A DNA stretch of 64,000 bases. Origin: Microthyrium microscopicum. Its lineage: Eukaryota. How positions within the stretch are numbered: position 1 is the stretch's first letter; each line of letters starts with the position of its first letter. The notes under the pieces are model-generated. The model was not told the DNA's origin. It was given only the letters and a program-made list of their open reading frames with translations, and did no database searches. The translations under genes were made by a program, and so were the position numbers. Below, in pieces: positions 2,396-37,368 of this stretch. The stretch covers positions 992,001 to 1,056,000 of the forward strand of contig MU004239.1 of the NCBI GenBank assembly GCA_010405405.1. The letters run 5' to 3'.

Positions 2396-4345
2396 ATGCC
2401 AACAACAAAAAGCACGTCTGCATAATAGTTTCAGATTCCACCTCTGGTCTTTGAGGTAGCAGCACGGGTCGGGCGGAAGTGGGCTTTTTTCTCTGGCGTA
2501 AATCTTGCAAAGCCAACAACCAATACCCACAGGCTCCACCGGCCTGCATAATCATTGGGGCTTGCAGCTTTGCAGTTTTACTTGCCAAAAAACCATACCC
2601 TTGTTTCAGCGATTGTTTTGTTCCCGCTGTATCAAATATTTTGTGTAAATTAATTTAATGAAGAGGGCGAAGGTGTTGGGATCAACGGGGCCCCCATGAT
2701 CACAAGGAGTTGATGTGGAAATCTGAAAGTCGTTTATTACCGTGTTTTTCTTCGCTTCTTGATGTCTATATACTGATATCCCTACCTTTGTGTTGTTTTC
2801 AACGTTTTATTTCTTATGTTTTCATACATTGTATTCGAAATCGCACGGCATGGACGTATACCTGGCATCGATTCTGGCTGCATTTTGGTTTTTGGCCGAT
2901 TTAAAGCGCTGTTCTCGGATAGAGATATACCCCCCTATGAATGATGGTTCTACTTTAATGCTCTATCTTTCTGTCCCAATGTCTGTGAGCCTATGTACTT
3001 AATTCATAAGCCATGATATTTGTGTATAGATTCGATGCCTTGGTTAATTACCATTTCCTGCCTGCCATTTTTGTTCCAAAATTACATCCGCTGTACGTGA
3101 TCGAAGAATTCTAGAAGCATAAACATGTTAATTGAACGTTGGATCTTGTGTCCCGAATTGTTGGATTCATATTAATTTTGCCCTTGTAAGCGCGTCGTCC
3201 CGAGTCCCGATGCCTTATTACCTTTACCATTATCGCGGATGGATAGATTAAGCGTTCACTTTTAAGCAAGGGTTTGATTTCTATGGCAGTTCTCGAAAAG
3301 AATGGATTGCTACTGTGATAATGACCGTTGAAGTTTAGAGGGTCTTTGGATGAGTATGAATGTATTAGGAAATGAGGCTCGTATCAACTATCAACAACAA
3401 ACATTTAGCATTCACGAATGGCATGGGCAACACGAAACAGAATGAAGTGAACTAGGTGCACGGAATGTAGTCCGGCTCCTCACTTGCCAAAGAAGCAACC
3501 CTTGTTTGCAAGCTTAAAGACAGATATGGGTGCGTAATTGCCGATCGGTGTATCTTCACTCATCCATCAATAGAAAAACAAGTTGACAAATTAAAACTTT
3601 ACGATGGTGATATTATGGGACGTAGTGGTATCTTTACTCTTGTGCAAATCACGAATTTTGTATGAGGTACTGCTTTGCCGCCTCTTTACTTTAGGAAATT
3701 TGCATCTTGACGAAGCGAGGAAGCATTTTTATCATCGGCCTTTGTTCTGCGGTAACTTTCATCCACCGCATTGATATAAAAAGGTCGGCCGTAGCCGTTT
3801 GTGCGCTTTTAGCGATGCAACGCTTATGCAGGTACAAATGGGGGAGTGGATCTAGTGTGCTTCCACGAGGCACGCGTTATTGGACTCAGTTACCGCTGAA
3901 ATCAAATAGTTTTGACGTGGGGCGTACGGGAATAGTGAAACACGATGCGACTACTTTAGTACCGTGGGAATATCAAATTCCTAGGACACACTTTTCGTTT
4001 GCTATGACTTTACCATCGCGAGTCTTTGGCGCTGCAACTGCAAGTCGGTCGATTTGACGCGGAGAGACGACTTCGAGTTTTAATCTCACTGCCTTTATGT
4101 CAGTTGACGCTGTCATGGTCGCCTTACACCTGGGAAGCTCGCGATACTGGTAGACACGAGTATGAATTCTGATATTGCTTGCAGAATCTGGAGATTATTT
4201 CATGAGAAGGGAAGCATGTCAGCCCATGAGGATTTGGAGTCGTGTGGTCTTCTGATTGGTTTGAGCCTGGTTCCTTGCGCATCTTGAATCTTCTCCTCCG
4301 GCATCAGAAAGCAAGACAAGACAACCACCAGGCAAGGCGCGAGTC

Positions 4346-6724: not shown

Positions 6725-7409
6725 GTATACTTAGGTAGGTCTCTAGGCAATGCAGTTCAAAAATAAACGAAGTGAGTGAAGTTACCATTGCCCCGGAATT
6801 GAAGACTACTCTAAAGAGACTAGTACAAATCGCGCTAGGCACAAAAACTCTCCGTACTCCGATTTGGCGGCTTTAGCGTCAGTCCTTTCTTCTCGGGTTC
6901 CTCGCTTCATCTCACAAGACTCAATCCTACAGATCCTTCTGTACTCATACGACGTGTCTTATCTGCATGACTCTTGATGTTGCGTCGTGAGTTGAATACT
7001 GAATTCTGACGCTGACATCTCCTGCGATTGGGACTCGCTAGCGCATGGGTAAGCGAACGATCCAGCCAAATAGTCCCAACTAGGAAATATTAGCCTATAC
7101 CACAGCGATGGCAGCGCATCGTGCTTGGCCTCACCAATGAAGGAAGTAGTATGCTAGGGTGAGTCGGATATTCTTTAGTCCTTCAACGGCCGAAATGTAT
7201 CAAGTGGCACAGCTTACAATCCTCGCGTAGATCTCTCTTCAGGGTGAGGCGATGTTCACATCATCTTAGATATTCTCAGAGTTGATATGGACGACATATA
7301 AAGATGAGTACTCGGATGATTGAAAAGGAGCCATAATGCTTCAAAGTCAATCCATTACAACAATATCAGTTTCCAATATCATTTCCAGCTTTCTTCCTCC
7401 TCAAACTGC

Positions 7410-9124
7410 ATGACCAACTCAATGGACTCAACGGAAGAGAAAGAAGAACATTACAAGGGTTGGCCGAACTCGCATGGTGTATGGAATTCATTCTGCTCTT
7501 TAAAGTAGTGACCTAACCTTTCCAGTTCGACCCGGATTTTGAAGTTCTCGAACCAGTCGAGCTTCAAATCACAGGAAAAATCCCCCAATATGCCGCTGGA
7601 ACTCTGTACAGAACTGGCCCAGGGAAGCGACAAGTCCAAGCCGACAACGGGAAAGTCTACACAATCGATCACTGGTTTGACGGATTCAATCAAGTCCATC
7701 GATTTCAAATTGTATCAGAAAATGGTACTATTCGAGCATACTACAACTCTCGTATGACTGTGGACAACATACTTCAGAACATTCGGAGAACAGGCAGACT
7801 CGACGGTTTCACATTTGCACAAAAGAACGATCCATGCCAGAGTTATTTCCAAAAGTTCCAGAGCCTATTCTTTCCTGCAACGCCTCCTACCCCTGATGAT
7901 GAAAAGTCATCTCGTAACGTGGGAGTTACTGTGGCCATCAGCATGCCTGGCTTGAGTAATTCAGATGGCGACAAACAGAAGACTAGCTTTCTCACTCTCA
8001 AAACGGATGCGACCCAGATGTCCAGAATTCATCCAGAGACTTTAGAGCCAATTGGTCTCGCCACGCAGGCGTTACTTCACCCCGATCTTACCGGGCCTCT
8101 ATCCGCAGCTCATTGTAAATCGGATCCAGTCACTGGTGACATATACAATTACAACTTGGATATTGGATCTAGTTGCACCTATCGTATATTCCATGTCTCT
8201 GCCAGGACAGGAGAGACTCGGATTCTCGCCAAATTTACTGGAGCTGGTGCTTACATCCACTCCCTCTTCCTCACAGCTGACCATGTCATTCTATGTGTAT
8301 GGAACAGTCACTACTCCATGGGAGGTCTCAAAATGCTCTGGGAGAAGAACATCCTAGACGCAATCGGGGACTACGATCCATCCAAGCCAGCAACGTGGTA
8401 CGTTATCCACCGGCGGGAAGGTGGTTTGCTAGCTACCTACGAGAGCCCAGCGTTCTTTTCCTTCCACTCGGTAAATGCTTGGGTAGAAACCAAGGGCGGG
8501 AGCTCATATATTGTCGCCGAATTGGCAGCATACGATAACCTTGATATGCTCAAAAGAGTTTATTACGAAAATCTCATGTCCAATGGGAAAGTCGCGAAAT
8601 CAAGTGGTGATCAAATGGCCAATAGTGCTAGAAGCACACTTCGTCGATATCGTCTTCCTGCTGTTCCTACTTCAACGAATCTCAAGTCAAAGTCAAAGGC
8701 GAAACGAATTGCCGTTGTTGAATGGACCGCCCCGTATGATGTTTCGCCTGAGTTGCCAACATTGAATCCTAACTTTCTAACTATTCCACATCGGTATACG
8801 TATGGTATTATCGACCGTGCAAAAAGTTCACTGTATGATGGGTTGGTCAAGTACGACTCACTAACCAAGGAAGCGAAATACTGGGAAGAATTTGGGCATA
8901 CTCCAGGCGAAGCCATTTTTATTCCGGATCCGAACTCCAAGGAAGAAGATGGCGGTGTCTTGTTGAGCGTGGTGTTCGATGGTATCAATGATCACAGCTA
9001 TCTCATTTGCCTTGATGCTCGCACAATGACTGAATTGGGAAGAGCGGATGTTCGCGGCGTTGTAGGTTTTGGTTTTCATGGAGCTTTTGCACCAGCAGTA
9101 GGCTCAGCGCAACCTCAGGTATAA
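7410..9124 (+). CDS. Carotenoid cleavage oxygenase (RPE65/CCO family), torulene dioxygenase CarT/CAO-2-like
   Basis: Exon 1 7410-7478 (..GWPNSHG), intron 7479-7525, exon 2 FDPDFEV..GTLYRTGPG..HWFDG in frame with the 7754 ORF; four Fe-ligand His candidates (AAH, YIHS, FHSVNAW, GFHG) plus EAIF and EDGG motifs. Confidence 0.9.
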
Positions 9125-9380
9125 CGATGTTTTGGTTCAGCGGCATATATAAGTTTCACGAATTGATCATTTAGGAGAAAGTCTGATTTTTTCAGTATTC
9201 GAATTGTGACAGACATAAGTATGCTTGGATAGTATTGGGTATCAAATCGAGCATTACGATCATTCTGTCATGCATTTAGCTTCGTTAGTTCGTGTAGGAG
9301 ATTGTCATGACAATGAACGTTTACTATTCCAAAATTAGTATGGGTAATCGCAACATTGTTGAGCACGGTTGACTGACTTT

Positions 9381-10178
9381 TCATCTGTCATTTTTTTCAT
9401 GCCACTTGTCATCCTGTCTATCGTCTTTTCGCTGATGTTTCTCCCACATCTTGTCAGCCAGGCCCGCGCCAATAGCTCCAACAACCGCGCCTATCAAAGC
9501 ACCCATCTTGTCCTTTCCTCCTGTAGCCTCATTTCCAAGGTATCCGCCTGCGATAGCGCCGGCTAGACCCGCTCCAAGATGATGGTCCTTCTCGTCATTC
9601 CGAGAGCGAGTACGAGATCGACTTCTACGGCGTGGTCTCTGATTATCGCGGCGTGTAGAGTAGCTGCGGGCGCGCGTGCGCTGCTCGCGAGGTGTTGGCA
9701 ATAATGTTTGATAGGGTTGCTCGTCGACATATTCCGGTCGTCTTCGACTCTGATAACGGTCGTTAGCTCACAGATATACTTTGACGCTTTACCAAACAGA
9801 ATTTGGGTGCGAAAGGTGGGGCAAACATACTCTACCATCATCTCGGTTTTCGCGTCTACTCACGGCGTGACCATGACTATCATCAGGCTCTTGAACAGCC
9901 AAGTAATTGTTGCGACCACCCCTTGGCCGCTCTTCAGGTTCGTAGTCATCTTGAGGGTCGTCGACTTCCTGCGGAGGAGCTGCTGGTACAGAAGAAGCTC
10001 GGTTTCGATGTCTGCGCTTTCTGACTAATTGGGGAAGCTGGGCTCCTCTATCGTAGATGGTATCGTGATACCGACCTGTGAGACGATCAAAGCCCTCAAG
10101 GCCCAGTTCCTAGATGATGATTTAGCTGACGATATCGAGCCAAAGATGTTCAAGCACACGAACCAATGCATCGGCCAT
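9381..10178 (-). CDS. Fungal glycine-zipper protein with RS-rich low-complexity region
   Basis: ATG 10178 (MADAL), introns 10163-10110 and 9830-9750 give a continuous frame ELGLEGFDRLTGRYHDTIYD..RSRSRTRSR..GAGLAGAIAGGYLG..GALIGAVVGAIGAG. Confidence 0.8.
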
Positions 10179-10391
10179 TATTTTGAGTTTGGCGGGAGTG
10201 TGTCTAGGTTGATGCTGGTTGCAAAACGTTCCACGGAACAATAGTTGACGACAGCTGGGGTTACCGTGCGAAAGTACCGGTAAAGTAGCTCAACGGGTGG
10301 GCGACGTAAAAGTTTAATCTGTGAACTGCCAGAATTGGTTCAACTGGTCATCGTCCTGGTGCTTGGCGCAAGTCAACTTTTGCGGCTGTCA

Positions 10392-10801
10392 CAGTGTTGG
10401 CACTCGAGTAAGTACTAAAACTAGTCTAGTCTAGTATACTAGTACTCGAGTACTAGTAGTCTAGTATTTTAAAAGCTCTAACTAGTCTAGTACGAGTACT
10501 AGTATTTATATTTTTTAAGACTAGTCTAGTAGAGTAAGTACTTAGTACTTTAAGACTAGTACTAGTCTAGTACTAATACTACTAAGCTTTACCCTTTTAC
10601 TAATAAAATACTAGAGAATACTAGTACTAGACTAGTACTAGAGTGCTAGTAGTCTAGTATTTTAGATAATCTAACTAGTCTAGTACTAGTACTAGTACTA
10701 GAAATTTCGTTAACTAGTCTAGTAGAGTACTCATTTTTAAAACGCCATACTAGCCGTACTAGTACTAGTACTCGACTAGACTAACTCGAGTTCCAACACT
10801 G
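10392..10801. mobile_element. Non-autonomous hAT-type MITE, 410 bp
   Basis: TIRs CAGTGTTGG(C/A)ACTCGAGT match at 17/18; perfect 8 bp TSD GGCTGTCA at 10384-10391 and 10802-10809; interior made of ACTAGT/AGTACT palindromic motifs with no ORF. Confidence 0.9.
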
Positions 10802-12020
10802 GGCTGTCACTCGTTGTCGATCATAAACAGGGAAAGATGGCGCTTACACCAATGACGTAACAGAGCGCTTGGCAGCCTTATGCTCAGCCTTGTCTTCAGC
10901 CTCATTGCTTCATACCTATTGTCAACTCAACATCAAACGGTAACAACTACCTACTTCTCGTGGCCATAATATCATGCAATAAAACTTTAGTTACGACTAA
11001 CAAGTGAAGAAATCTTACAGTTTATTACATGAACATGATATGCCCTAAAATATCGGGAGGTTAGGCTCAGTCAGGCTCAATGGCCAGATCAATCGTGCAT
11101 TATGGCGTCCAGGCCGTCTGATCCTATTAATACTAATCCTCGCCCACAATAGACTTCCTCTTAAACGCTCAGCTCAATCGATTAGAGGGCCTGCGGCTCA
11201 AATCTACCGAGCGAGATAAGGACATGGCATTAATGAATTACAGGGCCAGAATATCTCGTTCATTAGAGCATTTCAGAGTAAGACAAACCAGGATTTAATA
11301 TCACCTTCAGAAAGCCGTGTCAAAGTATACGTCGCCGATGTATGCACAAAATGCTCATGTTTCGCATCTTGACAATTGGGGACTATAGGTAGCTATAGGT
11401 CAAAGCCGACTGAGAAAATATAATCTGCGTTAAAAACCTACGTCTTTGGATAATAGACATGTGCGATAACTTGGGAATAATATGTGGCTGGCCAGGGTAT
11501 TTCTCCATAGGGTTGACGATCCTCCTGAATGATCAAGCAAATTTCGTTTCGCTTAGCTATGTGCGTGAGGTACATAATCTAGCAATATATCCACGCGTGA
11601 GCGCTATGAACTTTTCAATTTGACTGGCTTCAAGATTCGTACCTTAAACACCTGAGACCTTATAGCTGTCTTAGTTTTCCCAGGTTTGGTCTTTGAAAAA
11701 GCTAATATCAATTTATAGCAGCGATCATGAATATATTTTCCGCTTCGGTTGTACATCCGATCCACGACGCTTCTCCATTTGGACAATCATACATTACTTG
11801 ACAATGTGTTCATCTGCCGCTTACGAAAACGGGTCCTGTTAATCTAGACCTGCTTGATCGGTGGCATTAGATTTGCAAAATAATGTAAACCATAAAGGTC
11901 CTGCGAAGCAGATCGGCAGGGTCCAGTCAAATTTCTGCATCTTCTCGCAATACTAGAAAGGTCTTTGTTCATTTTCGAGAGACGACTAGACAAGAGCTAT
12001 AATTTGTTCGCGTGTTCACA

Positions 12021-13434
12021 ATGAGATCTTCAATCATTACTAGTGTGTTATGTCTTTCTGCCAGTGCATCGGCGGCCTCGATAGGTACATTCTCTGATAT
12101 ATTCCTGAACAGAGTATTTGTACTAACATCAAGTAGCACGTAGAGACGATCATCCGCCTCCTGCCAAACTGCCATCACAAAGTCTACCTTCCGAATTACT
12201 TCCGAAAGATGTCAAGGTTCAAAAGGCCTTCAAGGTCGAGAAACTGACGCCTCGCATCGATCCTAAAGCCACTCGCTTAAAGCTCACTTATGGCCCATAC
12301 GAGATCAAAGGCGCCAATGTATTTTCTTCCGCGATACGCATACAATGCAGCCAGTTGCTGACTTTTCTTAGGATACCCGCAAAATGGGTTCTGGTAAATC
12401 CATGGATCCACATGGCACAAGCTGGATATACTTGGCCGGCGACGACATCCCAAGAGATATCACTGTTCTGCAAGGACATTCGCAAATGGTCGACGAGGCC
12501 TACAAAGTGATGGATGTCAAAGACGGTCTTTACAACCACCACAATGTGTTCTTCGACTTGGACGTGATAAAAAAGCCACTCATTGCCTGCGGCGATAAGC
12601 CTCATGTCGATTCACCGCTAGCCGTTCTAATGGCAGGAGCTACCGAGGCCGCAAAAGACGATGCGGTGTCCTTCAGTATCAAGGACGTCAAGTCTGGCTT
12701 TTACGTTGGCAAAAACGATCGGATCATGATACAAACAGATACCGTCAATTACCACGATGAACCAAGGTTCGTGTTTTCCGAGTCTGAATTAGAGTTTGTA
12801 CCAGGCAAGGCTGCAGGTCTCTTACCCGCGATACAATCTTCCATTGATATTGGTGTATGTGGTGGACCGAATGGAAGTAGCATCCACGCACCAAAAGATC
12901 AAAAGATTTTTACTGTAGCTGGAAATGAGATGACCATGGCTCAAGACGGCTATTTTGGCAGCACGCGTAAGTTTCTTGACCTACCTATTCTTGACAAAAG
13001 TGACTAACGATGGCGATCAGGCGCCCATATGCATGGTAACTATTTGCTGATCGAGCTTAGCTGATCTTCAGACACTGACGTTATACTAGATGGTGGCAAA
13101 AGTATGGAAGTTTTTGTAAACGGAAAGAAGGTGTGCGAAACCACTGCTGTTTATGGTGGTTCTGGGGCAACTGGTGTTGGTCCAAATGGAAAGCCTTGGG
13201 AAACCATATCGACTATGACAGCTTGCCCAACAATCAAGGTTGCGAAGGGAGATAAACTATCCATGAAGGCTCATTTCGACATGGAGGCCCATCCAGCGTA
13301 AGTAATCAAACTGATATACGACTTCTGAAAGTTACAGCAGCTAAAATATGTCTAGGCGTGAGTCGTCACATGGAGAAATGTCAGAGGCGATGGCTCTTTT
13401 CGTTGGTGTTTGGGTTTCAGCGACTCCGGCATAG
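12021..13434 (+). CDS. Secreted hypothetical protein with PHM/DBH-like (SURNod19-like) His/Met motifs
   Basis: Signal peptide MRSSIITSVLCLSASASA; six exons with canonical introns, including a 15 nt microexon 13021-13035; spliced protein has YNHH, RAHMHDGG, CETTAVYG, MTAC and C-terminal HGEMSEAMAL. Confidence 0.75.
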
Positions 13435-20729: not shown

Positions 20730-22228
20730 ACAACGCCACTTGCCGAGCGCATCGCTATAAGCGAAGAACTTGGAATGCAGCGTGGGAGTTGGTATCATTG
20801 TCGGTGGGAAAAAGAGGAACGGGTAAGCCAGAGAATTAACGCGCCACCATCGAGAACCATGTCTGCCATTTACCGCACTTGATATCGAGTGCTTTGATTC
20901 CCATCGTAAACCATAGAACTCCAAGCTCTAAACGCACTCTTTGGGAAGCAAAGCAATCGACGACAAAGCGTAGTGGATGGTTGACATCACACTCGATGGG
21001 AGCATGCCAGTCATTCTACCGCCTGGGAGAGGGCTGAGAAAGAATGGGATACAAACATTTTTTTCCTCATCGCGAGAGGATTTTTTCTTGTCTTCGTGAT
21101 GAAAGATGCGATATATATCCTGGAATTTGTGTTAGCGCGGCGATATGTTTGGAGAGGAATTGTTTACCTTGGCTGAAGGAGTGTGTCCCTTGCCCTTCTT
21201 CTCTCTTCGACTCAGAAACCTACTGACGCCGTTCATGATGGGATAACAATTGATGAATTAGCAGACCATGGCGTATGGTGGAGCTGATGAGAGTTGTATT
21301 CCCTCTCTTAGAAGAGGCGGAGATCAATAGAAAGCGGAAACCATATGCCGGGAATGAATGGTGAATTCTGCAGGGACAGTCCGACAGGCGGGGTTCTTTG
21401 GGCGATATTGAGCAAGAACGACGTGGGGGGATGCAGCGTAACCCTTGAAGAGACGTTTCAGCGGTACTTCAGACACGCGCGCAGGAGAAGCTGAAAGTAG
21501 CAGAGGTGTACGGATGGAGTCAGTAGGTCCCAGTGCTGATTTGAGGAAGTTATTGAGACTGGAGGAGGAAAGATTGGAGAAAGAGATGAGAGAATAGAGT
21601 TGGTGGTAGATAATTGAGATAGATAATGCAGCCTGGCGCCTTCTGGAAATCCCAAGTTGACTTGCGTTAGTTCTGCAGAATAGTCTATTAGTAGTGTGGC
21701 GGCTGTGTGGTAGTGAAGCTGTAATGGTGATCTTGACTGCTTGTAGATGGCTGCAACGTCCGTGAACCTGTCAGAAGGGTCTGACCAGGTATTGATAGAC
21801 CCTGGAATCCTGTAATCCTGGATAGTGGTAATGGGTAGTAGCTAGGGCCAAATTGATGGATGGATCTTTGTTGGTGTCAGAAGTAGAAAGTAGAGCGAGC
21901 GGGGGCCTCAAGAAGGATTGAGGATTGCAGAACTGCTGCTTTAAGGTTGATTGTTTGCATTGGTTCACTTGGTCTCTGGCCTCTGCCAGCTGGTGACTTG
22001 ACAGGTTTTGCAGTCAGCCAAGACTGCACTGCGTATCATGTGCAAAATCCAGAATAACAAAAGCAACGTTAACGTGAGAAAAAAATGAAACCTCTATGGG
22101 TAGATATGTAAGCATTTGATCGCTCTTTCTCTTTGCTTCCGGTTTGCTCCCTAACTCCTTCCTTCTTTCCCTTCCTTAGGTGTTCCTACTCCTTCAACAC
22201 GCATGTACTCATCGCGTGGGCTCACAAG

Positions 22229-22380
22229 TGTTGCAAGAATATGAGAAATAAAGCGTGGTTGATTACTACGGGGGTCTAAGGGCCTAATATAGTTTTTAGG
22301 ACACGCTGATTAGGGGATTATGTTATCCCTAATTAGGTCCTACGATTATCTAATCCCTTAGTATATTCTTTATTATAATA
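22229..22380 (-). repeat. 3' LTR (left copy)
   Basis: Direct repeat of 31680-31831; begins TGTTGCAAG; followed on the plus strand by a pyrimidine tract TTCTTCCTT (PPT on the minus strand). Confidence 0.95.
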
Positions 22381-23024
22381 TTCTTCCTTACTAGCGTGAA
22401 CTTTCCTAAGATTATAAATCCTATAGCTATAGCTTTAATAAATGAGTAAAATAAAAAGAATATTATAATAACTAATAAGGAACCTCTACCTAGGAACTAG
22501 GTTTATCGCCTTAGTTATATTAGATAGTAATCTCTAAGATATTATTCCTTAAGAACTCTTCCTAAGATCTTAGTTAAACTATCGTAAATAGTACTTAGGC
22601 GTTTATAGTTCCTTAATTCTTTTAGGAAGGTTTATCTATATAAGAGCTATTAGTAGTAGTATATTAAGGAATTATAAAGGGTTTATATAAGTATATTAAG
22701 GCTACTTAATCTAGTAAGGGATATATATAACCTACGTATTAAGGCCTTAAAGGATAAAGTTTGTAAGAAGTAACGTATAGGTAGTAATAAAGAACTAGGT
22801 AGTAATTACTAGTCTAAGTAAATATAGGGATAGGAGCTTAATTCTATATTTATAAAGCTTTATAATTTATTGTCTTCTCTTTTTCTTTTTTATTATATTT
22901 TTACAATATTTTTAAACTAGTAGAAGTAGATTTCCTCTTATACTTCTAATATTATTAAATATAAGTAACTTTATATATTCTCCTTACTTAAAACTTACTA
23001 TTTATACTTCTTAAGGCTCTTAAA

Positions 23025-24580
23025 ATAACTTCTCTAGGCACTCTAAAGAAAGATAGCTCTTAGAAGTCTAATAAGGGAAACTCTTCTTGTTTAGGCGCTT
23101 ATTAGAAGATTATTAACGCTCTAAAGGAGGATAAGTAAGAGTAGCCCTTACCTTATATAACCTATTTACGTAAGAAGGTTAAGACTAAGGTTCTATCCTC
23201 TTTGCTAAGTTATAAGAAAATTCCTAAGGAATTAGTTTATAACTTAGTTAAGCGTTATTCTTATTTTATAAGTTTTTAGCTAATTAACTAAATTCTAGAG
23301 GCTAATAAGAAGGAGGAAGATCTCTTTAGTAATACCTCTAGTAACGTTTCCTATCCTTACTATAAGTTTCTAGTACCTTCTATAATGCTAAGAATGTCTT
23401 ATTAAATAATTCCTATTAATAATACTCTTACTTAAGGATTAGCGCGTATAATAAGAAGTCTAGACTTATTAAAAAGTAATTATAAGGCTAAGTATAGAAC
23501 TTCTATACTTTTTAACTTATTATAAGTACGCAATTTCTATACTAAGACTTTTATAATAGTTTTAACTTGTAAGTATAAGGCTACTAAAAAAGAGTTAGTA
23601 AACTTAGTAAAGTACTAGGAGTTTATAAAGTAAGAAGTAAAAGATTATAAAGATTAACTAGCCTTTACTAATAAGAGCCTAAAAGATACTTATAAGTATA
23701 TTAAAACTACTAAAGCTACGCGTAATAAACGCGAGTAGGAGTTAAAGTAAGTAAAACTCTAAAAGTATAAACGTAAGGTAAGCTTAATAGTAATTTTAGA
23801 AGAGCTATCTACTATGCGTAGTTATACGAATATAGTAAGACTAACTATTAAGAAGAGTATAGATTATTAGGAGAAGTAGGTTAAGTTCCTAGACTCTAAC
23901 TAGTATCTTGCCTTTAAGGATATTAAACTCTTAAGGAAGAAAGTAACTTAGGAATTACTCTTCTAGCTCTTAAAATATTATTAGAAGGATAATAGTATTT
24001 TAGTAGAGGTTGCTAATATCTTAGCGCTTATACCTTAGTAAGGAATCTATTAGCATCTAAGTACTTTACTCTTAACTAGGAATATTCTATTATTGTCTTT
24101 TTATTTAAAGACTTCTATAATATATATAATTATAGGAGTAAAGTAAGAAAAGGCTTATATATATTACTAAGACTTGTCGTAAGTCTATACTTATAATAGG
24201 TACGTTATTAGTATACGTAAGAGGAATAAGGCTCCTTTCCTAGATAGTGCCTATATTAATTATGCGTTTAATAGCAAACCTTAAACTTGTTTATTTTATA
24301 AGGACTACGTCTCGCTATAGGGTTAGAAGAAAGGTCTAAATCTTACTATTATTTAATTATCTACTTCTCTTAGCATTTCTAAGTTACTAATTAATAAGGA
24401 GTACTTTAGAATAGCTAAAATTGTTATAGGATTAGTAGCCTAGGTAAAGCTCTTAGAGAATAAGAAGAAGGAGTAGGTATAGGCCTTAAAAAGATAGGAC
24501 TTTGTAGGATTATAATAGGATGTATAGTAGTGGTTCTTTAATATTCTTATATTTCTTAGTCTTATCTTATTAGTTTATTA
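23025..24580 (+). pseudogene. RIP-degraded extra antisense ORF inside the retroelement: coiled coil plus Cys6 (DUF3716-like) motif
   Basis: One frame reads as protein for about 520 codons if TAA/TAG are read as Q/W; E/K/Q heptad stretch near 23570-23960; 24135-24299 de-RIPs to G..EKACxxCQ..CV..FLDGACVNCAFNGKPQTCSF; ends approximate. Confidence 0.65.
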
Positions 24581-24839
24581 AAGGGTAGACTTTAGTAATA
24601 GTCTTAGGAATTACTAGGGAGATCTAAAGATAACTTATTATATTTAAATATCCTTAGTAACGATCCTAGGAATTACTAGGAAGATCTAAGGATTTAGCTT
24701 GTTTATTATAGCTTGTAATAGTTTACTTAAATTAATAATAAAATAAAAGTAATTTCTTATAAATAGTTTCTTAAATAAATATAATTAGGAAAGGTTATAA
24801 AAGAGATAATAAAAGGTTAATTTTTCTTTTCTTTCCTAT

Positions 24840-27800
24840 AGGTACCTTGCTTATGTCTATACGTAGGATAATCTCTTATTTAGGAGTAGCCTTCTGCTAT
24901 CTTTATCTTAATCCTAAATATTATAGGCTAGTACTAGGATGCATAGAACTACTAGGCGTTATAGTTAGCCTAAATATATTAGTGTCCTATAAGAATTCTT
25001 TAGTTATATCTATCTCTTATAGTAGACTAGATTTAGAGTAATCTATAGAAAGAACCTTTACTTCTATAGTATCTAGTAATAAAGGGTTAATACCCTAATA
25101 ATTCTCTCTAAGATTAGATACCTATTTATATAGATCTATTACCTCTAGTATAGGCGTATAGGTAATTAGGGTAGCGATTCTATTATAGCTCCTTAGCCTT
25201 AATAATTTATCTTTCTACTTTTATTATTTTAGTAATATAAAGATTAATTCTTATTCTACTATAGCTAAGAGGATTTCCTCCCTTATTAAGCTTTAATTTA
25301 GAGGGGTAGAAATATTATTATTCTCCTTCCTTATTAGATCTTATAGCACTATAAAATATTTTGCCTTCTACATAATTTACTTTATCTACTTTAGATTGCT
25401 TTATGCTAAAGCTAGAATTAGGCTAGGAGGAATATATTCTAATGCTATAGGAGTCTCTAAGTTACTACTTAAGTTATAAATAATTACTATAGGGCGTTTC
25501 TTTTCTTATCTATAAATGCTTACTTTAGCTTTCTAAACTTTTCTTATAAGGTTAAGAGAGATAGTAGGTAGACCTAGGTAATATCTCCTAGTACTAGACC
25601 TTTTAATATTAATTAATTCTACTAAAAGGTTTCTTAATCTATTAAGCTAGTCTTTCTTAGTTATAGTAGATATATCTATCTCACTTTTATACTCTTTATC
25701 TAGGACGCCTTTAAGGTTATCCTTGCTTAGTTACTTATGCTTAGGATACGGCTAGTTTTAGTAATAATATTTATTTTCTTTCTATATATATGCTTATATA
25801 AGGTAATTCCTATAGACGAGGTTTCTAAGTACTTTTTTATTAAGTATCTTAAGAGTGTATATTCTTAGGAGGTAGACCTTTAAGACTTTATAAAGGCTAA
25901 ACTATGCCGCCTAGAACTTAGTTTTATTTAAGTTTTTAAGGAGTATATAAGAACCTATAGGGAACTTAATAATAAAGTCCTCTTTTAAAATTATATTACT
26001 ATTAATAAGGTTTAAAGCTACGGCTTATTTTAATAAGGCGTTATAATAGACTTACTTAGTAGTTCTAACTTTTTCTAGACAATCTTTAGTAATTACGTAG
26101 ATAAAAAGTATAGTACTAGTTAATTTAGCTTATTTATCTTTCTTTACTTAGCCTATTTTAAAGTCTTTAGGATCTTTCCTATAGATAAGGAAGAAGAGAG
26201 ATATTCTTAACGTAGTATAAGCTCGTACTTTAGTAATATAAACTACCTAATTTAGGTATAGATCCTAGCTAGCTATAAGTTTTTCTTCTAGGAACTTAGT
26301 TAGGAACATGCCTAGTAAGTTGTTAAATCTCTTAACCTTTTTGTTAAATTGAGGGTTATATAGGGCTATTAAGTAGTACTTAGTCTTTATCTATTATAAT
26401 AAGGATAAAATTACGTTTAAGATAAACTAAGGTCTATTATCTAAGGTTAACGATTAAGAAGAACTATATTCTAAGATAATTTTCTTATAGATAAATTCTA
26501 TGACTATAGGAGCGGTAGCATTTAGTACTACTTTTATAATAAGCTATCCTATAATATAGTTAATTATATAGATAATATATTAGTTCCTAAAAAGACTCTA
26601 TAGAAGTTTACTAATTAGGTTAATTCCCTAAGCCTTAAATAGCTATAGGTTTCGTACTTAATAGTAGAACCTATGCTTAGGCCTACTTTAATCTATCTAT
26701 TAAACTTAACATATAGGACAGAACTAGGTAAATTCTTAGAAGTTATCTTTTATTCCTAACTACTAACCTTCTAGTTTAAGGATACTAGTAAGGCCTATAT
26801 ATAATAGGTGCCTATACTAATTATATATTTTCTTAATAAGGTCTTAATAGTAGAGGAAGTAAATATAGAGTAAACTAGTAAGCATTTTAGCTTTAGTAGA
26901 ATTTTTCTCTAAGAATAGATACTTGCGTTTCCTTCTAATATCTTTATTAGGGTTGATCTAAAAACGATTAAGAACGCTTTTCTAGAGCCTCTTTTATACG
27001 CTAGTAGGGATAGTATAATCTTTCTTTTCTAACGCTTTTTATAAGCTCTATATATAGAGGGCTTTCTATTCTTTCTACTTTTATAAGGGTTCTAATAAGG
27101 TAGCTTGCGCCTTAGAAAATAAGTTATTATTACTATCTTTAGGCTCTATTTCCTAGATAGTGTTAATCTATTCTTCTTAAAAGTTTAGATAGCGACTAAA
27201 AGTATTAGGAACTACTACTTAGGAACCCTTACGATACATAAAGATAAGATTAAATTCTTAGAACTCTTTAATTTATTAAGTAATACGTTAAGTATTGTTC
27301 TTAATTGTATTTATATACTATAAGCTATTATAATTTGTAATTACTTTAATAGTCTTCCCTAGGAAGTAGTGTTAGTATCTCCTAATTATATTCTTAATTA
27401 TAAGAAGCTTTTTCTTATACACTAGATAGTTAAGTTTAGCTCTGCTTAGCTTATAGCTATTAAAAGTAACTAGGTACTATTTACCCTAGTCGTCTTCTTA
27501 TACTAGCTTGTAACTAATCGTATAATCTAAAGCATCTATTTAGAGCTTTATAGGCTTTTGTAAGTTATATATTACTAAGATAGGCAATAAGGTTAATAGA
27601 GTCTTAATTCTATTAAAGGCTATAGTATATTAATAGGTCTAAGTAATAAGGTAGTGCTTCTTTTTCTTAATATCTAGGTTAGCCTCCTTTAGGAGGTTAA
27701 AAATAAGGATAGCAATCTTAGTAAAGTTCTTAATATACTACTAGTAGTATAAGGTAAGACTAAGGAATTAACGTATTTTATATACGTTCTTAGGTATAGG

Positions 27801-30800
27801 CTAGGACTTAATTAAGGTAGTCTTTTTACGTAAGGGTTAGATTTACTAACTTTCTACTTTATAGCTATAGAATTTAATCTTCTTAACTTTAAAGATATAT
27901 TTATTAGGATGAGCGTAGAGCTTATTATCTTAGAAGATCTTTAGAACTTAGGTAATATACTTATAATATTCCTCTATAATATTTAAGTAAATAATAATAT
28001 TATTTAGGTAAATAACTACGTAGGTTAACAGAAAGGGCTAAAGAAGTGTATTTATTATACGCTAGAAGAATGATAACGTATTTATTAATTTAAAAGGCAT
28101 AATAAGAAACTTGTACTTCCTAAACCTAGTATTAAAGGCTATTTTCTTAATATTTTTTTCTACTATACGGACTTACTAATAGCTTAATAGGAGGTTAAGC
28201 TTAGAGAAGAATCTTGCTCTACTAATAGTATTAAGATACTTATTAATTCGTAGTAAGGAATAAGTATCCTTGCGCGTAACTATATTAAGTAGACGATAGT
28301 TAATATATATTCTCTATTTTCTTTTTAGCTTTAGTACAAATAGAATAAGGAAACTCTAAGAACTTCCTAAGACTCTAATAAGTTTTTTAGCAAGTAGTTC
28401 TTAAATCTACTTTTCTTACTCTTTTAGTTGTAGACTAAATATCTAATAATAAGCCTAATTATAAGGAGGAGCGTCCCTTGTAGAGATTTCGTAATTAAAC
28501 TTAAAGTATAGAGAAAGTTTAAAAAGAGTATAATGAAAAGACTTATAATAATTATTTAAAAGTTTCTATATGCCTTTATCTTCTAAAGCAAGTTTATTAA
28601 TGTTAAGGTTATTAGTTATTAAGAGGATATTAGGCTATTCTTATATTTTGTGAATTAGCTAAAGAACGCTCTTAACTTTGTTTCTTGCTCTTTTTACCCT
28701 ATTCTAAAGTACTTAAAAGATTACGTAAAGAGAGCTAGCTATAAACTACTCTATTTATTTTAGGTAGCTTCTTTTATTCTAGAGAGGCTCTACCTAGCGT
28801 TCTATAATAAGCTTATAAGTATATAGGCCCTTTAAGCGTTACTTTATAAGCTTAATTCGCCTTATTATCTAATTAATCTATAGATTGCATAACTAGAACT
28901 ATAAGAGTCTAAAAATAACGTTAAGATTAGAAATATCTAGGACATAAGCCTTAAAGTAGCTATAAAAGGTCCTAATACGATAAAGTAAGTAAATCTTAAA
29001 GGAAGTTATAACTATATAGCTATCTATAAGAGTAACTTCTTTCTCTAAGATAAGTATTATAGGAGTTTTAAGTTTCTTAATAATCTTTTAACTAACGTAA
29101 ATAGAGTTAGCTCCTAAGTCTAGAAGAGCTATAGTCTTAATAGAATAATTTTTATAATATAAGTAAATAAGTAGACGTAAGAGAGTATTGCTATATCTAC
29201 TTATATAGTTAAGGAAAGCTTATTAATTGTTATATAGATAAGTAGAGTATTCTAGTTCTAAGCTAGAAGATTCTTATTTATCTCTTAGTAATAGTAGTTT
29301 TTTAAATCCTATTATTGCTAGTTAGGCTTTTTATAATCTATAGCGCGATAGCTAAGTTTACTATAATTCTAGTACTTAAGTTTAGAGTTATCTATAGGAG
29401 CTTTCCTACTTTTAGAGTCCTTTTTACGAAAGGGCTATAACTTTTTATTAGAGTTAAATTTCCTAGAGCGTTAAGTATTATGTTATCTTCTAGGATGGTG
29501 ACTATAGCTATTTATAGCGTTAAGCTACCCTAAATTTTTATTATTTAACTTAAGCTTATTATTAGTATAGCTTTTATTATTAACTTCCCTAAGATATTTT
29601 TTAGAATTAGTATCTAGAGTAGGCTTTTTATCTTCCTTAAAACTAGAGGAGATTTTATTAAGCTACCTTAGCCTATAAGCGTTATAAGTATTACGCGTAT
29701 TTCTATAAAAGTTTGTATTATATTTAATAATCTCTTATTTAAAGGCTAAAATATTAACTATAGGGTTAGGAATAGTACTATGCCTACGCTTAGCTTTAAA
29801 GGTAACTTGTTCTTTAAGGCCTCCTTAGATTTAGATACCTATTTTGTGATTAGTAGGTATAGGATTTATTTAAGTTTATAGAATATAAAGATAATAAATA
29901 AATTCCTTAGTAAATAAAACCTATAATATATAATTCTACTAGATACTAACTTTAAGTATATCTTTTTTAATGCTAAATATAGGTTAAAAGTAGATAAAGA
30001 AGTAAGATAAACTTTTAAGTGTTTTAAACTCCTCTATAGCTTATTACTAGGCTAAGTTAGCCTATAAGAGACGTTGCTTAATAGGAAGATATTCTTTAAC
30101 CTTAGTAATTTTTTACTACTTAGGTAGGGTAGAATTTAATAAGAGAATATTCTTACTAGCCTTAAAGGTATAAAGGAGGCTCTTAACCTAGGTATTATAC
30201 TCGCTTAGTTTCCTAGAGAATAAACTATTAGGAGGTATCTTAAACTTAGTTAAATATTATCTCTATTCCTAAGGAACGTTTTTTATTATCTTAATAAGTT
30301 TTTAGAGACTAAAAGTTTAGAAGAGCAATTTAATAGTCTTATCTAACTTCTTACTTAGCTTTCTTATAAGGTCTAGGTAAGTAATACCTATTCGTAAAGT
30401 TTCTTAGGTTAAAGCCTAAGTTTAGGTATAAGCCTTAATTTTATCTATTTAGCAATCTTAGGTACGTAGAGTAAACTTACTCGCGTTAAGATAAGAAGTT
30501 AATTTAGTAATATAATTTACTATCTCTTACTACTAAGTATATTAGACGTTCTTTATAGGTTTAGGGCTATAATCTTATTTACTTTGCCTATTAGTAGTAG
30601 AGTAAAATAACGCTCCTTAAGAAGAAATAGGCTTATTTACGAACTACTAATTTTTGTTATTATTACGTTAGAAAGTTTAGTTATAGGCCTAGAGAACGTA
30701 GTTAGGTCCCCTAGGAGTATAGTTCTAAGCTTAGGAGAGAGTTTATAGTTTAGTAAAAAGATAGTTAATAGTCTAGAGATTAACTTAATACGTGCTAGTA

Positions 30801-30950
30801 GAATAGTTTAAGGCTTAGGGCCCTAATTACTAAATGTTAGTAACCTAAGTTATAAGGTTAGAACTAGGATTTAGTACGCTAGGAAGGTTATCTAGTAATA
30901 TAGAAGTAAGTTACTTATCTTAAGGATCTAGGTTAGTAACTTAGGCTTAG
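24840..30950 (-). pseudogene. gag-pol polyprotein relic
   Basis: De-RIP motifs: CCHC knuckle near 29335-29380, protease ALLD(S)GA near 29110-29130 in the gag frame, RT DYRLLN..KDxYPLPRI..FSKLD and YL(DD) at 27999-28010, RNase H DAS..NYPVHEKEL, integrase HHCC near 26700-26830 and GPY/F module near 25810-25950; ends approximate. Confidence 0.9.
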
Positions 30951-31679
30951 TATTATACTTACTAAGTATCTTATCTTATAGCTTAGGCTATAATGTTATT
31001 ATGCTAGTTATTTATTTTAGTAAAGGGGAGTAATAGTTTTAACGAAGGGTATAATCTTAGTAAGGTAAGGAAAGAGTCTTAAGGTTTAGAAGTTCCTATA
31101 CTAAAGTTAGTTAGATAGAATCTAGAGTTAGGAGATTATTCTAAGGTGGATTTTTATGCTTCCTTAGTATAGATAAGATCTTAATCTAATTTCCTAAGAT
31201 AACCTAAGGCTAAGAGCCTACGTTATTACTTATTAGCTTTAATTTATATAGTAAAGTTCCTATAACGTTATCCTAAGGGATTTTTTAAGGAGAAGTTCTT
31301 ATGTTTCGTCTAATAGTTACGTAATTAACGTAGCAAAGGTTAGTAGGGATAAGAAGGGTATTATTATAGAAGAGATAATTCTTATAATATATTTAATAAT
31401 CCTTAAAGTAGTAGTTTAAATTAAAGATAATTTAAGACATTTTTAGGATATATTATAGTAAGAAATATTATTATACGTAAATCTTAAGAATTATTTCCTA
31501 ATATATAGTTACTAAGTATTAGGCTATAATAAGGCTAGCTAATTAGGAGATAGTGTTCTTAGAGCATATCTTACTAGATATTAATCCTAAGTAATTATTA
31601 ATGATAAGGTAAATCTAGGAATTTCTATAAGAGGTCTATTATCTAGAGGTCTTAATTAAATTAAATCATTACTACTAGA

Positions 31680-31831
31680 TATTATAAGAATATGAGAAAT
31701 AAAGCGTGGTTAATTACTATAGGGGTCTAAGGGCCTAATATAGTTTTTAGGACACGCTAATCAGGGGATTATGTTATCCCTAATTAGGTCCTACGATTAT
31801 CTAATCCCTTGGCATGTTCTTCATCACAACA
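31680..31831 (-). repeat. 5' LTR (right copy)
   Basis: Direct repeat of 22229-22380; ends CATCACAACA next to TSD ACAAG. Confidence 0.95.
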
Positions 31832-32407
31832 ACAAGCTTGTTCAACGGCGCCTCCCATATCCATAAGTCGTCCGCCATTGGCCATTTGATAATCGTCTGC
31901 CTTACGGTTAATACTGTACTTCTCCCATCAATGAATGGCAGGGTTAACAATAACGACAAGTCATACATATGTCATAGTGAAATGTGTGCTACTTTGAAGG
32001 TAATTGTGTTTCTTGTACTAGCGACACGCAAGACAGGCTGCCATATTGTTTCTCATAGACATCCGTTGCCTTCCTGTTTGGGCAGGGAACTTCGGATATT
32101 ATTAGATCGTCAATCATCCGCGGTTCCTCCGCTATTTGTGATATTATTTCTTGACTCCTAGATACAAGTCCGAGACTAGCTCGCACCGTAAAAAATGGGC
32201 ATGACGTACGGCATGCTTCACTTATGGGTGCCTTGAAAGATGAAATCATTCGAAGTATGTACTGTCGGGTCCCGTATCCGACTCCAGGCAGCTCGGCCCG
32301 AACTGGCTTCCGTCGGGATCAACCGCCGACCAAGATTTTATGCTCTAGTGCTGCGAGACTCCAAAGAGATTGATCGTGCATAGGTACATCTTCATCCGCC
32401 TCTATCA

Positions 32408-34405: not shown

Positions 34406-37368
34406 ATGCGTTCTCGTAGCAAGCTCCGAGCGAGCCTACGAGACAAACCTGCCGATGAAATGTCTCCGACACCAGGCCCTTCTACACGCCCAACTCGATC
34501 ATTCAGAGGCGTCGTCGTTCCATCGGTTCAAGCCGATACAGATAGCGTAGACTCGAAAAACTACCGAGATACATCAACTCGAAGTGCCTCATTGGCATCC
34601 GAGACACCTGATACTAGCATGGTTGTAACACCAGCCGAATCTTTGGTCAAAGGTCGAGGTCGTGGACGACAAATTTCCACAAAGCTTGTCCTTGGTTCCG
34701 CAAATGCAGGTACCCGTGGCCGATCAAAGCGAAAGTCGTCAACAATCAAGACTGAAGACGAAGCAATCAAGGATGAAGAGAGTGTGATTGTCGACACCTC
34801 AAAGGATGCTGAATTGGCTTTGAGACTCCAGAAACAAGAGTACAAGGACTCTGATGCTGAAGTATCTGGCGATGACTCCGACGTTCCAATCATGCAGAAT
34901 AGAATGAATGCAAAGAAACGATCACGTCGGTCTGCACTGTCTGATAGCGAATCAGAGCTTGTAAGTATATCTACTAAGCATTCATTGTTTCGTCGGGTCT
35001 CTGAGGCTAATACACTGTAGAGTGATTACTCTATTCGCGGTCCAGCAGGCAAACGTGCTCGCCATGAATCTGATTTCAATCTTACTGAGACCGAAGAAGA
35101 AGATGAGCTGTCTGAAGAGGACATTGAAAACGATGTCACTACCGCTGTTGCAGGACCTAGTGCGCTTATGGAGGAGGAGGAAGAAATAGACGAAACCCTC
35201 TCACCAGCAGGTAAGCAAATATCGATTGTCTAGTGTAGTATCTTGATGGCCGCGTTCTAACTCTCCTATCAACAGCCAAACGACGAGCTATAAAAGCTGC
35301 GCGACGAGCCAAACGACGTGGACCGCGGTTTAAGGTACCTCGAGGCGTCACTGGTCAGGAAGCACGCAAAATGCGCCGCCGTATGAAGCTGGAGAACTCT
35401 CATCCGGAAATTACCACTATGTGGGATGATTTAGCCAAACTTCCAGTCATCAAGCCCGTTCAGGCTCCTCAACCAGAGTCCATCACGCGTGAGCTGAAAT
35501 CATTTCAACGCGAAGGACTTGACTGGATGATCAAACAAGAAAAATCTACTTTCAAAGGTGGCCTTCTTGGTGATGAAATGGGTATGGGCAAAACGATTCA
35601 AGCCGTCAGTCTTATCATGTCCGACTATCCAGCAAAAGCTCCTTCACTAGTGCTTGTTCCACCCGTCGCTTTGATGCAATGGAGTGATGAGATCGAGTCT
35701 TACACTGATGGAAAGCTCAAAGTCTTGGTTGTTCATGGTTCGAATACCAAATCCAAGAACCTTACTGTCAAGGCTATCAAGCAGTACAACGTGCTGGTCA
35801 TGTCGTACAATACGCTGGAGTCGGCTTTTCGCAAGCAAGAGAAGGGCTGGAGCCGCGGCGAAAATATCATCAAAGCCGACTCTGCCGTTCATGCTGTGAA
35901 ATGGCATCGTGTTATACTCGATGAGGCGCACTCCATCAAAAGCCGAAATACTGGACAAGCAAAAGCCTGTTTTGCTTTGAACGCTACCTACAAATGGTGC
36001 TTATCTGGCACTCCTGTGCAAAACCGCATTGGAGAGTTCTTCTCCCTTTTGCGCTTCCTAGAGTGTCGACCATTTGCAGATTACTTCTGCGAAGCTTGTG
36101 ATTGTGCTGAACTTCACTGGGCTATTGACACAGAATATCGATGCACCAAGTGTAGACATTCTAGCTCTGAGCATCGTAGTGTCTTCAATGAAGAGATTTT
36201 GAACCCAATTACAGGGGATAGGTAAGTCCTCGCCGATTGTAGAGATATCACATCATACTGATTCTTTCCTAGTCCTGCCGATCGTGATGCTGCTTTGGAC
36301 AAGCTTCACATGCTCACTGATCGTATCATGCTTCGGCGATTGAAGAAAGATTACACCGCCTCTATGGAGCTACCGCCAAAGCTGGTTCAAGTACGCAACG
36401 AGTTCTTTAGTTCCATCGAACGGGATTTCTCTTCAAGTATTATGTCCAATACTGTGCGCCAATTTGACACTTACGTCTCTCGCGGTGTGGTCTTAAACAA
36501 CTACGCCAACATCTTCGGTCTGATTATGCAGATGCGTCAAGTCGCCAACCACCCAGATCTCATCCTTCGAAAGCATTCTGAAGGTGGCCAAAACGTCTTG
36601 ATTTGCAACATCTGCGACGAACCAGCCGAGGAACCAATCCGATCTCAGTGCAAGCACGACTTCTGTCGCGAATGCGCCAAGTCTTTCATCTCAACCTGCG
36701 AGCAAAGCAGCGGCGATATAGAATGTCCTCGCTGCCACATTGCCCTATCCATTGATTTGACGCAGCCTGAAATCGAGCAAGATCTTGATATGGTCAAGAA
36801 AAGCTCAATCATCAACCGCATCAAAATGTCCGACTGGACATCCTCTACCAAAATCGAAATGCTCGTCTACGAACTCTACAAGCTCCGCTCTTCCAAACGC
36901 ACCCTTAAGAGCATCGTCTTCAGCCAATTCACCAGCATGCTGCAGCTCGTCGAATGGCGTCTCCGCAAAGCAGGCTTCAGCACCGTCATGTTAGACGGCA
37001 GCATGACGCCTATGCAACGCAAAAAGAGCATCCAGTACTTTATGGAGAACGCCAATGTTGAAGTCTTCCTCGTCTCGCTCAAAGCTGGTGGTGTCGCGCT
37101 CAATTTGACAGAGGCCAGTCGCGTATTCATCATTGATCCGTGGTGGAATCCGGCGGCTGAGTGGCAGTCTGCTGATCGGGTTCATCGTATTGGGCAGAGT
37201 CGGCCGTGTGTTATTACGCGGTTGGTGGTGGAGGATAGTGTGGAGAGTCGGATGGTGCAGTTGCAGGAGAAGAAGGCGAATCTTATTGCGAGCACTATCA
37301 ATAAGGATAAGGTTGCGATGGATAAGCTGAGTCCGGAGGATCTGCAGTTCTTGTTTCGTGGAACTTGA
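34406..37368 (+). CDS. RAD16: DNA repair protein Rad16 (SNF2 ATPase with RING finger)
   Basis: Introns 34961-35020, 35211-35275, 36222-36272; GGLLGDEMGMGKT, ILDEAH, LSGTPVQNR, RING CNIC..CKHDFCREC..CPRC, WTSSTKIE, DPWWNPAAEWQSADRVHRIGQ. Confidence 0.96.

Follow-up and report, generated by a model that had tools for sequence, protein, structure and literature searches.

The window analysed here, a stretch of 64,000 nucleotides from contig MU004239.1 of Microthyrium microscopicum, harbors a long terminal repeat (LTR) retrotransposon at 22229-31831, oriented on the minus strand. The results indicate that this element is probably a Ty3/Gypsy of a filamentous ascomycete that was killed by repeat-induced point mutation (RIP), and whose family carried a third gene, antisense to gag and pol and ending in a DUF3716 domain (Pfam PF12511). 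The third gene would be located between pol and the 3' LTR, convergent with pol, and would encode a protein of about 450-490 residues. The evidence comes from the stop codons and purine content of a plus-strand frame, from a profile search that takes RIP into account, and from diverged copies of the same region in sequencing data.

The insertion and the open reading frame opposite pol

The segment 22229-31831 is one complete, heavily RIP-mutated and dead Ty3/Gypsy LTR insertion on the minus strand. The window has the G+C content of ordinary fungal gene space (42-57%), except for a single block at approximately 22000-32000, where G+C content falls to 25-31%. The block bears the dinucleotide signature of RIP, with a TA/AT ratio of 1.81 and a (CA+TG)/(AC+GT) ratio of 0.18, compared to 0.78 and 1.23 in the flank, and the flanks of the element are untouched by RIP. 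The two LTRs (22229-22380 and 31680-31831) share 92% identity across 144 nt. Within pol, the order of protease, reverse transcriptase (RT), RNase H and integrase is kept as motif remnants. Pfam detected RT_RNaseH_2 at 4.2e-17, and detected neither RVT_1 nor rve in the mutated pol. A word-indexed search with the RT-to-integrase part retrieved 18 Ty3/Gypsy polyproteins containing RVT, RNase H and rve, the best of which (6.1e-44) also contains a chromodomain. No primer-binding site is recognisable in the mutated sequence beside the 5' LTR.

An earlier note on this DNA had described about 2.4 kb of extra DNA between the 3' end of pol and the 3' LTR, and had read in it an antisense frame of about 520 codons, convergent with pol. 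The extra DNA is indeed present: pol is readable to approximately 24800, and about 2.4 kb separates its end from the LTR at 22229-22380. The plus-strand frame at 23025-24593 contains 40 stops in 523 codons, all of them TAA or TAG and none TGA, compared to 70, 70, 55, 51 and 61 stops in the other five frames. Dinucleotide shuffles gave 63.9±7.0 stops per frame and 57.0±4.3 in the lowest of three frames; 40 or fewer stops were obtained in 0 of 2000. The stop density of the candidate frame (7.6%) is similar to that of pol (7.8%). When calculated over 900-nt intervals, the z score for stop depletion is -3.2 at 22831-23730 and -3.2 at 23281-24180, against a range of -1.8 to -3.4 in pol. None of the minus-strand frames beneath the candidate is depleted of stops, indicating that the candidate is not the mirror of a sense open reading frame (ORF).

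Purine content provides a measure that survives mutation. RIP makes only transitions, and thus leaves the purine/pyrimidine sequence untouched. The purine content of the first, second and third codon positions is 0.577, 0.511 and 0.489 in the candidate frame and 0.574, 0.509 and 0.471 in pol, and ORFs of the host have a similar first-position excess (0.544-0.607). The results support a decayed plus-strand ORF convergent with pol, which agrees with the earlier note in both strand and orientation. The proposed length of about 520 codons held up only in part. Stop depletion and purine periodicity favor the frame, but the z score weakens to -1.3 at 23731-24630, so the last part of the frame is weaker, and past about 24310-24500 the frame is indistinguishable from noise. 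The ATA at 23025, the candidate start, is consistent with a RIP-altered ATG.

A coiled coil had also been proposed for the product. This was not supported, as six segments of the literal sequence lack the 3.5-residue hydrophobic (heptad) periodicity (p 0.27-0.64). A separate observation concerns the gag region, where plus phase 2, antisense to gag (29131-31380), has z scores of -2.1 to -3.4, like those of real coding sequence, and where two minus-strand frames are also depleted. The depletion antisense to gag is probably a by-product of a K/E-rich gag on the sense strand, and warns against relying on stop depletion alone where DNA has been mutated by RIP.

The DUF3716-like domain

The earlier note had proposed, from the cysteine spacing, a DUF3716-like domain near the end of the antisense frame. 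Its literal residues and coordinates for 24135-24299 are correct, including a last cysteine that is literal (TGT at 24288), and each reversion that it proposed turns a TpA dinucleotide back into TpG or CpA. The motif was examined by running a degenerate DNA pattern for its RIP-reverted form, [GA]-C-x-N-C-x-[FY]-N-x5-C-x-F, on metagenome contigs, which returned 66 loci. After 28 ORFs were dropped, 19 because a stop interrupted the motif and 9 because of their very short length, the remaining 38 were scanned. PF12511 was matched by 15 of the 38, of which 13 scored above the 22-bit cut-off (41.5-67.3 bits), and no other Pfam family was matched. The two matches below the cut-off (L004 and L007) have prokaryotic contexts and are probably false. 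As PF12511 was the sole Pfam family among the pattern-derived ORFs, the motif is a genuine signature of DUF3716.

An alignment of eight of the metagenome domains recruited 21 database proteins, all annotated PF12511, from Diaporthe, Chaetomium, Morchella, Aspergillus, Hypoxylon, Colletotrichum and others. The family is characterised by N-x-E-A-x-L-x-[QY]-x-x-G, followed by C-x2-C, G-P-[FW]-x2-C-[VI] and G-[AS]-C-x-N-C-x-Y-N-x5-C-[ST]-F, with successive cysteines separated by x2, x9-12, x9-15, x2 and x8. A hidden Markov model (HMM) of 71 columns was built from the 21 proteins and scored against the element with RIP reversions allowed, such that in a TpA either the T may be read as C or the A as G, but never both in one dinucleotide. 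The candidate frame scored 58.9 bits over columns 3-71 at 24072-24302. Literal scoring with the same HMM gave at most 8.5-11 bits. The best RIP-aware score elsewhere in the six frames of the 9.6-kb element was 30.9 bits. Dinucleotide shuffles of the whole element (80, best of six frames) scored 32.3±2.6 with a maximum of 39.5, corresponding to a Gumbel p of 2.5e-6, and 300 column-permuted models scored 25.1±3.6 with a maximum of 41.1. The reversed model scored 30.5 bits. Under RIP-aware scoring, the C-terminal part of the ORF thus matches DUF3716.

Because the members of the HMM were recruited through the C-terminal motif, the model was split into C and N parts. The C part (columns 53-71) scored 37.8 bits, compared to 26.8 bits for the best off-target in the real element and 23.9±1.9 in 50 shuffles. 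The N part (columns 1-52), which lies outside the search pattern, scored 29.2 bits in the 60 codons directly upstream in the same frame; a score this high was reached in 0 of 4500 random windows drawn from the real element and in 2 of 4000 drawn from shuffles. Under the RIP-aware reading, and only then, the candidate would have six cysteines, spaced C-x2-C-x11-C-x16-C-x2-C-x8-C. Five of these columns are TAT or TAC codons (24156, 24165, 24201, 24252 and 24261), and the sixth is the literal TGT. Other family positions are matched literally, namely G at 24135, N at 24258, F at 24267 (the Y/F column), N at 24270 and F at 24294. Judged from these scores, a DUF3716-like domain is very probably present in the antisense frame.

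Among the metagenome ORFs are near-identical copies that differ at the first cysteine of the domain, which is retained in L058 but replaced by Tyr in L044; Tyr occupies this position in L042 as well. The pair L044 and L058 indicates that the Cys/Tyr change proposed for the window occurs in nature. PF12511 was not found among the 34 long ORFs of the window or in 14 control genomes, and the DUF3716 alignment had no match in viral contigs.

Element anatomy and other copies

The features of the insertion are listed in Table 1. The two 40-nt direct repeats in the gap that separates the ORF from pol occupy 24592-24631 and 24654-24693, and contigs of other copies vary at these repeats. Within pol, minus phase 1 has fewer stops at 26431-27780 than the main pol frame (phase 2); at 26580-27179, there are 10 stops per 200 codons in phase 1 and 26 in phase 2 (z about -2.0). 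Because phase 1 out-reads the main pol frame there, this copy probably has frameshifting indels near the N-terminus of integrase.

Table 1. Positions of the features of the Ty3/Gypsy insertion within the window.
Feature	Positions	Strand	Basis
Target-site duplication ACAAG, left copy	22224-22228		Identical 5 bases outside both LTR ends
3' LTR (element orientation), 152 bp, TG..CA-type termini	22229-22380	-	Direct repeat with 31680-31831
Polypurine-tract-like run AAGGAAGAA (minus strand), adjoining the 3' LTR	22381-22389	-	Read from sequence
Spacer 5' of the antisense ORF, with a presumed promoter (inferred only)	22390-23024	+	Stop depletion in no frame
Decayed antisense additional ORF, about 430-490 codons, both ends unfixed	23025-24500	+	Stop depletion, purine periodicity, pol-like stop density
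DUF3716-like six-Cys domain	24072-24302	+	RIP-aware HMM, 58.9 bits
Two 40-nt direct repeats, 85% identical, between ORF end and pol end	24592-24693		Repeat search
pol remnant	24800-29300	-	Motif remnants, Pfam, polyprotein matches
Integrase CxxC	26709-26723	-	pol
RNase H	27255-27623	-	pol
RT YxDD remnant	27987-28010	-	pol
Protease DLG motif remnant	29106-29129	-	pol
gag region and leader, frame uncertain	29301-31679	-	K-rich minus-strand frame; several frames stop-depleted
5' LTR (element orientation)	31680-31831	-	Direct repeat with 3' LTR
Target-site duplication ACAAG, right copy	31832-31836		Matches left copy

The surrounding window contains host genes. A HET-domain ORF (4265-6721, plus strand, 4e-28) is located approximately 15 kb from the element, followed by an RPE65-type carotenoid oxygenase at 7517-9121 (1.7e-104). 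A split SNF2/RING helicase is found at 35239-37365, and further host genes include Kre9, a fungal DUF2015 protein and MFS transporters.

The earlier note regarded the antisense gene as a trait of an element family, not of this copy alone. RIP acts on duplicated DNA. The TA/AT ratio of the extra region is 2.03, which makes RIP there as strong as in the whole element. The sequence was found only in DNA runs of a single sample, probably the source. Contigs from four runs of this sample were aligned to the window at a likeness of at least 80%. Several contigs that are 10-17% diverged, almost only by transitions, span 22938-23674, showing that diverged copies of the extra region exist in the same sample. 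In run X2, the summed contig depth, which is not a copy number, is 3822-9226 over the extra region, 5303-12733 over gag-pol and approximately 948 in the flanks, and it does not change abruptly where pol gives way to the ORF. That the extra region is a feature of the element family is therefore partly shown: uniform RIP and the diverged copies of the region favor it, but no whole other copy was seen.

The contigs also provide information on the LTRs. The summed depth of the LTR is several-fold above that of the internal region, and loose contig ends fall at 22229 and 22380, which are the LTR borders. The excess depth, together with the loose ends, suggests many solo LTRs. One contig joint, 22380 to 22229, corresponds to an LTR-LTR tandem. 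A second, 26830 to 24284 with 14 other letters between, corresponds to a rearranged or deleted copy.

Alternative explanations and possible function

The earlier note took canonical Ty3/Gypsy elements to encode only gag and pol. The premise that they have no extra antisense gene is not supported. Antisense ORFs are known in Boty, Grande and RIRE2, and therefore the architecture of the present element is not new. The brtn gene of Boty was reportedly first described by Zhao et al. (2011, Virology 417:248). Boty (BcGypsy1), found in Botrytis cinerea and Sclerotinia, carries brtn as an antisense additional gene (PMC8365987, PMC7264820, PMC4227169, PMC5987419). Like the present element, Boty is a fungal Ty3/Gypsy whose additional gene is located between pol and the 3' LTR and runs opposite to gag-pol. 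The LTRs of the present element are only 152 bp, however, the present copy is RIP-dead, and the two genes are likened by place and orientation.

Plant elements reported to have an additional antisense ORF in the interval from pol to the 3' LTR include maize Grande (gene23), rice RIRE2, Silene Retand and Phaseolus PvRetro13 (PMC7264820). These ORFs have the same position and orientation as the candidate and are present in most copies of their families (PMC7264820). A nuclear or regulatory role is suspected (PMC7264820). Their products are described as having no clear similarity to other database proteins, with one containing an SMC domain (PMC7264820). The candidate differs in belonging to another kingdom and in ending in a recognisable Pfam domain. 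A link between DUF3716 and an LTR retrotransposon was not found in the literature searched, which did not cover the extra-ORF drawings of BcGypsy elements in the supplements of PMC8365987. Thus, a DUF3716 domain in an antisense retrotransposon ORF appears to be new.

DUF3716 is found in other mobile contexts. REP9-1 and REP9-2, intact and expressed genes of the REP9 IS3EU DNA transposon of Zymoseptoria tritici, carry DUF3716 (PMC8232023). REP9 is similar to the present element in that a DUF3716 accessory gene lies inside a multicopy fungal transposon, but it is a class II transposon with intact, expressed genes, whereas the present element is an LTR retrotransposon (PMC8232023). In the metagenome, an identical 248-residue DUF3716 ORF is found on three contigs (L002, L024 and L025), and in L002 and L024 it is convergent with an ORF for a Pif1-type helicase (Pif1_2B_dom, 6.4e-18 and 2e-20). 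These contigs may represent a Helitron-like element carrying DUF3716. A 17.7-kb contig (L062/L065) contains a 3-kb stretch twice, 6.8 kb apart, which looks like a repeated unit. In each stretch, a 160-residue DUF3716 ORF precedes a 484-residue ORF of the same strand, and the latter has no Pfam match.

Several results weigh against the presence of a DUF3716 gene in the element family. The domain call depends on the best RIP reversion being chosen for each codon, the cysteines at the five TAY columns belong to the RIP-aware reading, and unmutated copies were not seen. The members of the HMM were recruited through a motif that was itself drawn from the hypothesis. The GPF motif and the upstream NxEA motif of the family are unmatched in the candidate, and the N part alone, scored across the whole element, was equalled by 20 of 80 shuffles and is not significant. 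For no other copy was a contig shown that links pol with both the ORF and the LTR, and the depth that supports a family trait is a sum over contigs, not a copy number. The genes flanking DUF3716 in the 15 metagenome loci (1.5-kb flanks) comprise 105 ORFs of at least 90 residues, and neither RT nor integrase was found in any of the 37 that were scanned.

Searches with the literal ORF, translated with X at stops, were also blank. The only Pfam match of the whole ORF was Fib_alpha at E 5.1. The 77-residue domain piece had no Pfam match; PF12511, the check that the earlier note had put forward, was absent even at E up to 10, and its 22-bit gathering cut-off was not reached by the literal translation. 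There were 0 matches by phmmer among 1.84 billion representatives, 0 by word-indexed search among 8000 candidates, and no relatives in viral or metagenome contigs. A stop-free 33-residue piece had no usable match in Atlas, and the AlphaFold2 (AF2) model of the literal ORF (pLDDT 35.5) is meaningless. The miss of PF12511 would be expected if the cysteines had become Tyr. The blank literal searches as a group say little, because pol fares almost as badly in the same copy.

It is possible, although unlikely, that the 2.4 kb is a passenger or nested insertion, either part of a different mobile element with DUF3716 or a captured DUF3716 gene of the host, without a role in the life cycle of the retrotransposon. 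The passenger would have landed in one ancestral Gypsy copy and then been copied along. The presence of DUF3716 in other transposon classes, including REP9 (PMC8232023) and the loci with a neighboring Pif1-type helicase (L002 and L024), is in keeping with this explanation, as are the N-terminal 350 codons of the ORF, for which literal searches found no relatives. Transduced ORFs are also known in LTR elements (PMC7264820). However, no terminal inverted repeats frame the region, and the inverted repeats within 22380-25000 are only short and of low complementarity, which speaks against a nested class II element. RIP is uniform and contig depth is continuous with pol, indicating that the composite itself was multiplied. 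In addition, the ORF sits in precisely the place and orientation known for the conserved antisense ORFs in Boty, Grande and RIRE2. An ancient acquisition kept in all copies is indistinguishable from an accessory gene with the present data.

A second alternative, that the element was regulated by an antisense RNA or a source of double-stranded RNA and that the frame is open only incidentally, is very improbable. Antisense transcription and silencing mediated by double-stranded RNA have been raised as a possible role of such regions (PMC7264820). A non-coding RNA, however, would not be expected to show a frame-specific lack of stops, purine periodicity of the sense type and a match to a protein domain. 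It is equally hard to credit that the frame and its Cys-like pattern are accidents of TA-rich, RIP-mutated DNA: RIP does remove TGA and make many TAY codons in every frame, and antisense frames can be stop-depleted, as in plus phase 2 over gag, but chance given equal freedom reached the observed values in none of the 2000 stop shuffles, the 80 shuffles of the element or the 300 permuted models (30.9 bits off-target versus 58.9 bits), and this explanation is already largely refuted.

If the family did carry an antisense DUF3716 gene, then the gene would presumably be transcribed from its own promoter in the spacer of approximately 650 bp beside the 3' LTR. The six invariant cysteines of the domain suggest zinc binding, and those of the candidate may likewise bind zinc. 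The order of cysteines in the Gal4 Zn(II)2Cys6 cluster is C-x2-C...C...C-x2-C...C. DUF3716 resembles the Zn(II)2Cys6 (Gal4/HAP1) type in having six cysteines in this same order, but its spacers are much longer and the structural matches are not significant. An AF2 model of a natural DUF3716 domain, that of L014, is of high confidence (pLDDT 91.7, pTM 0.82). Foldseek against the PDB returned no significant match for this model; the top five were HAP1 Zn2Cys6-DNA complexes (E 4.2-7.5, probability at most 0.06), and VIA-align gave no Z of 2 or more. The modelled likeness to HAP1 is a lead, not evidence.

A possible mode of action for the domain comes from host proteins. PSC58 of F. graminearum is a DUF3716 protein and the orthologue of N. 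crassa NCU05718 (PMC10776026). NCU05718 binds double-stranded TTAGGG repeats directly; the domain responsible for DNA binding was not identified (PMC4650311). NCU05718 and PSC58 are similar to the candidate as DUF3716 proteins (PMC10776026), and DNA binding by NCU05718 suggests how the domain may act. They differ in being host genes that are not transposon-borne, and the DNA-binding region of NCU05718 was not mapped to DUF3716. The product of the third gene may bind DNA in the nucleus and serve the element in trans, its most likely role being that of a tether or regulator by which expression or integration is steered.

A broader proposal is that DUF3716 is a zinc-cluster DNA-binding module primarily of mobile elements, acquired by at least three unrelated transposon classes (IS3EU, Helitron-like and Gypsy), and that hosts have domesticated it, one example being a protein that binds telomere repeats. 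The Gypsy version, encoded by the element, would then target or tether integration or expression to particular chromatin. This proposal is speculative and, taken as a whole, decidedly improbable at present. If it were true, the DUF3716 factor of Gypsy would be a fungal counterpart of retroviral accessory proteins.

Finally, what antisense extra genes do for LTR retrotransposons is a standing question in both plants and fungi, in part because the encoded proteins are unlike anything described. The putative product described here ends in a defined and widespread fungal domain, which is also found in a DNA transposon, and one host protein of this group, NCU05718, is reported to bind telomeric DNA (PMC4650311). 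This provides a testable idea for accessory genes, namely sequence- or chromatin-directed DNA binding. Pfam fails to detect even RT and integrase in this copy, and RIP-aware profile scoring offers a general route to naming domains in RIP-degraded repeats that ordinary searches miss. The expansions of DUF3716 in the genomes of Pezizomycotina may partly be transposon cargo.

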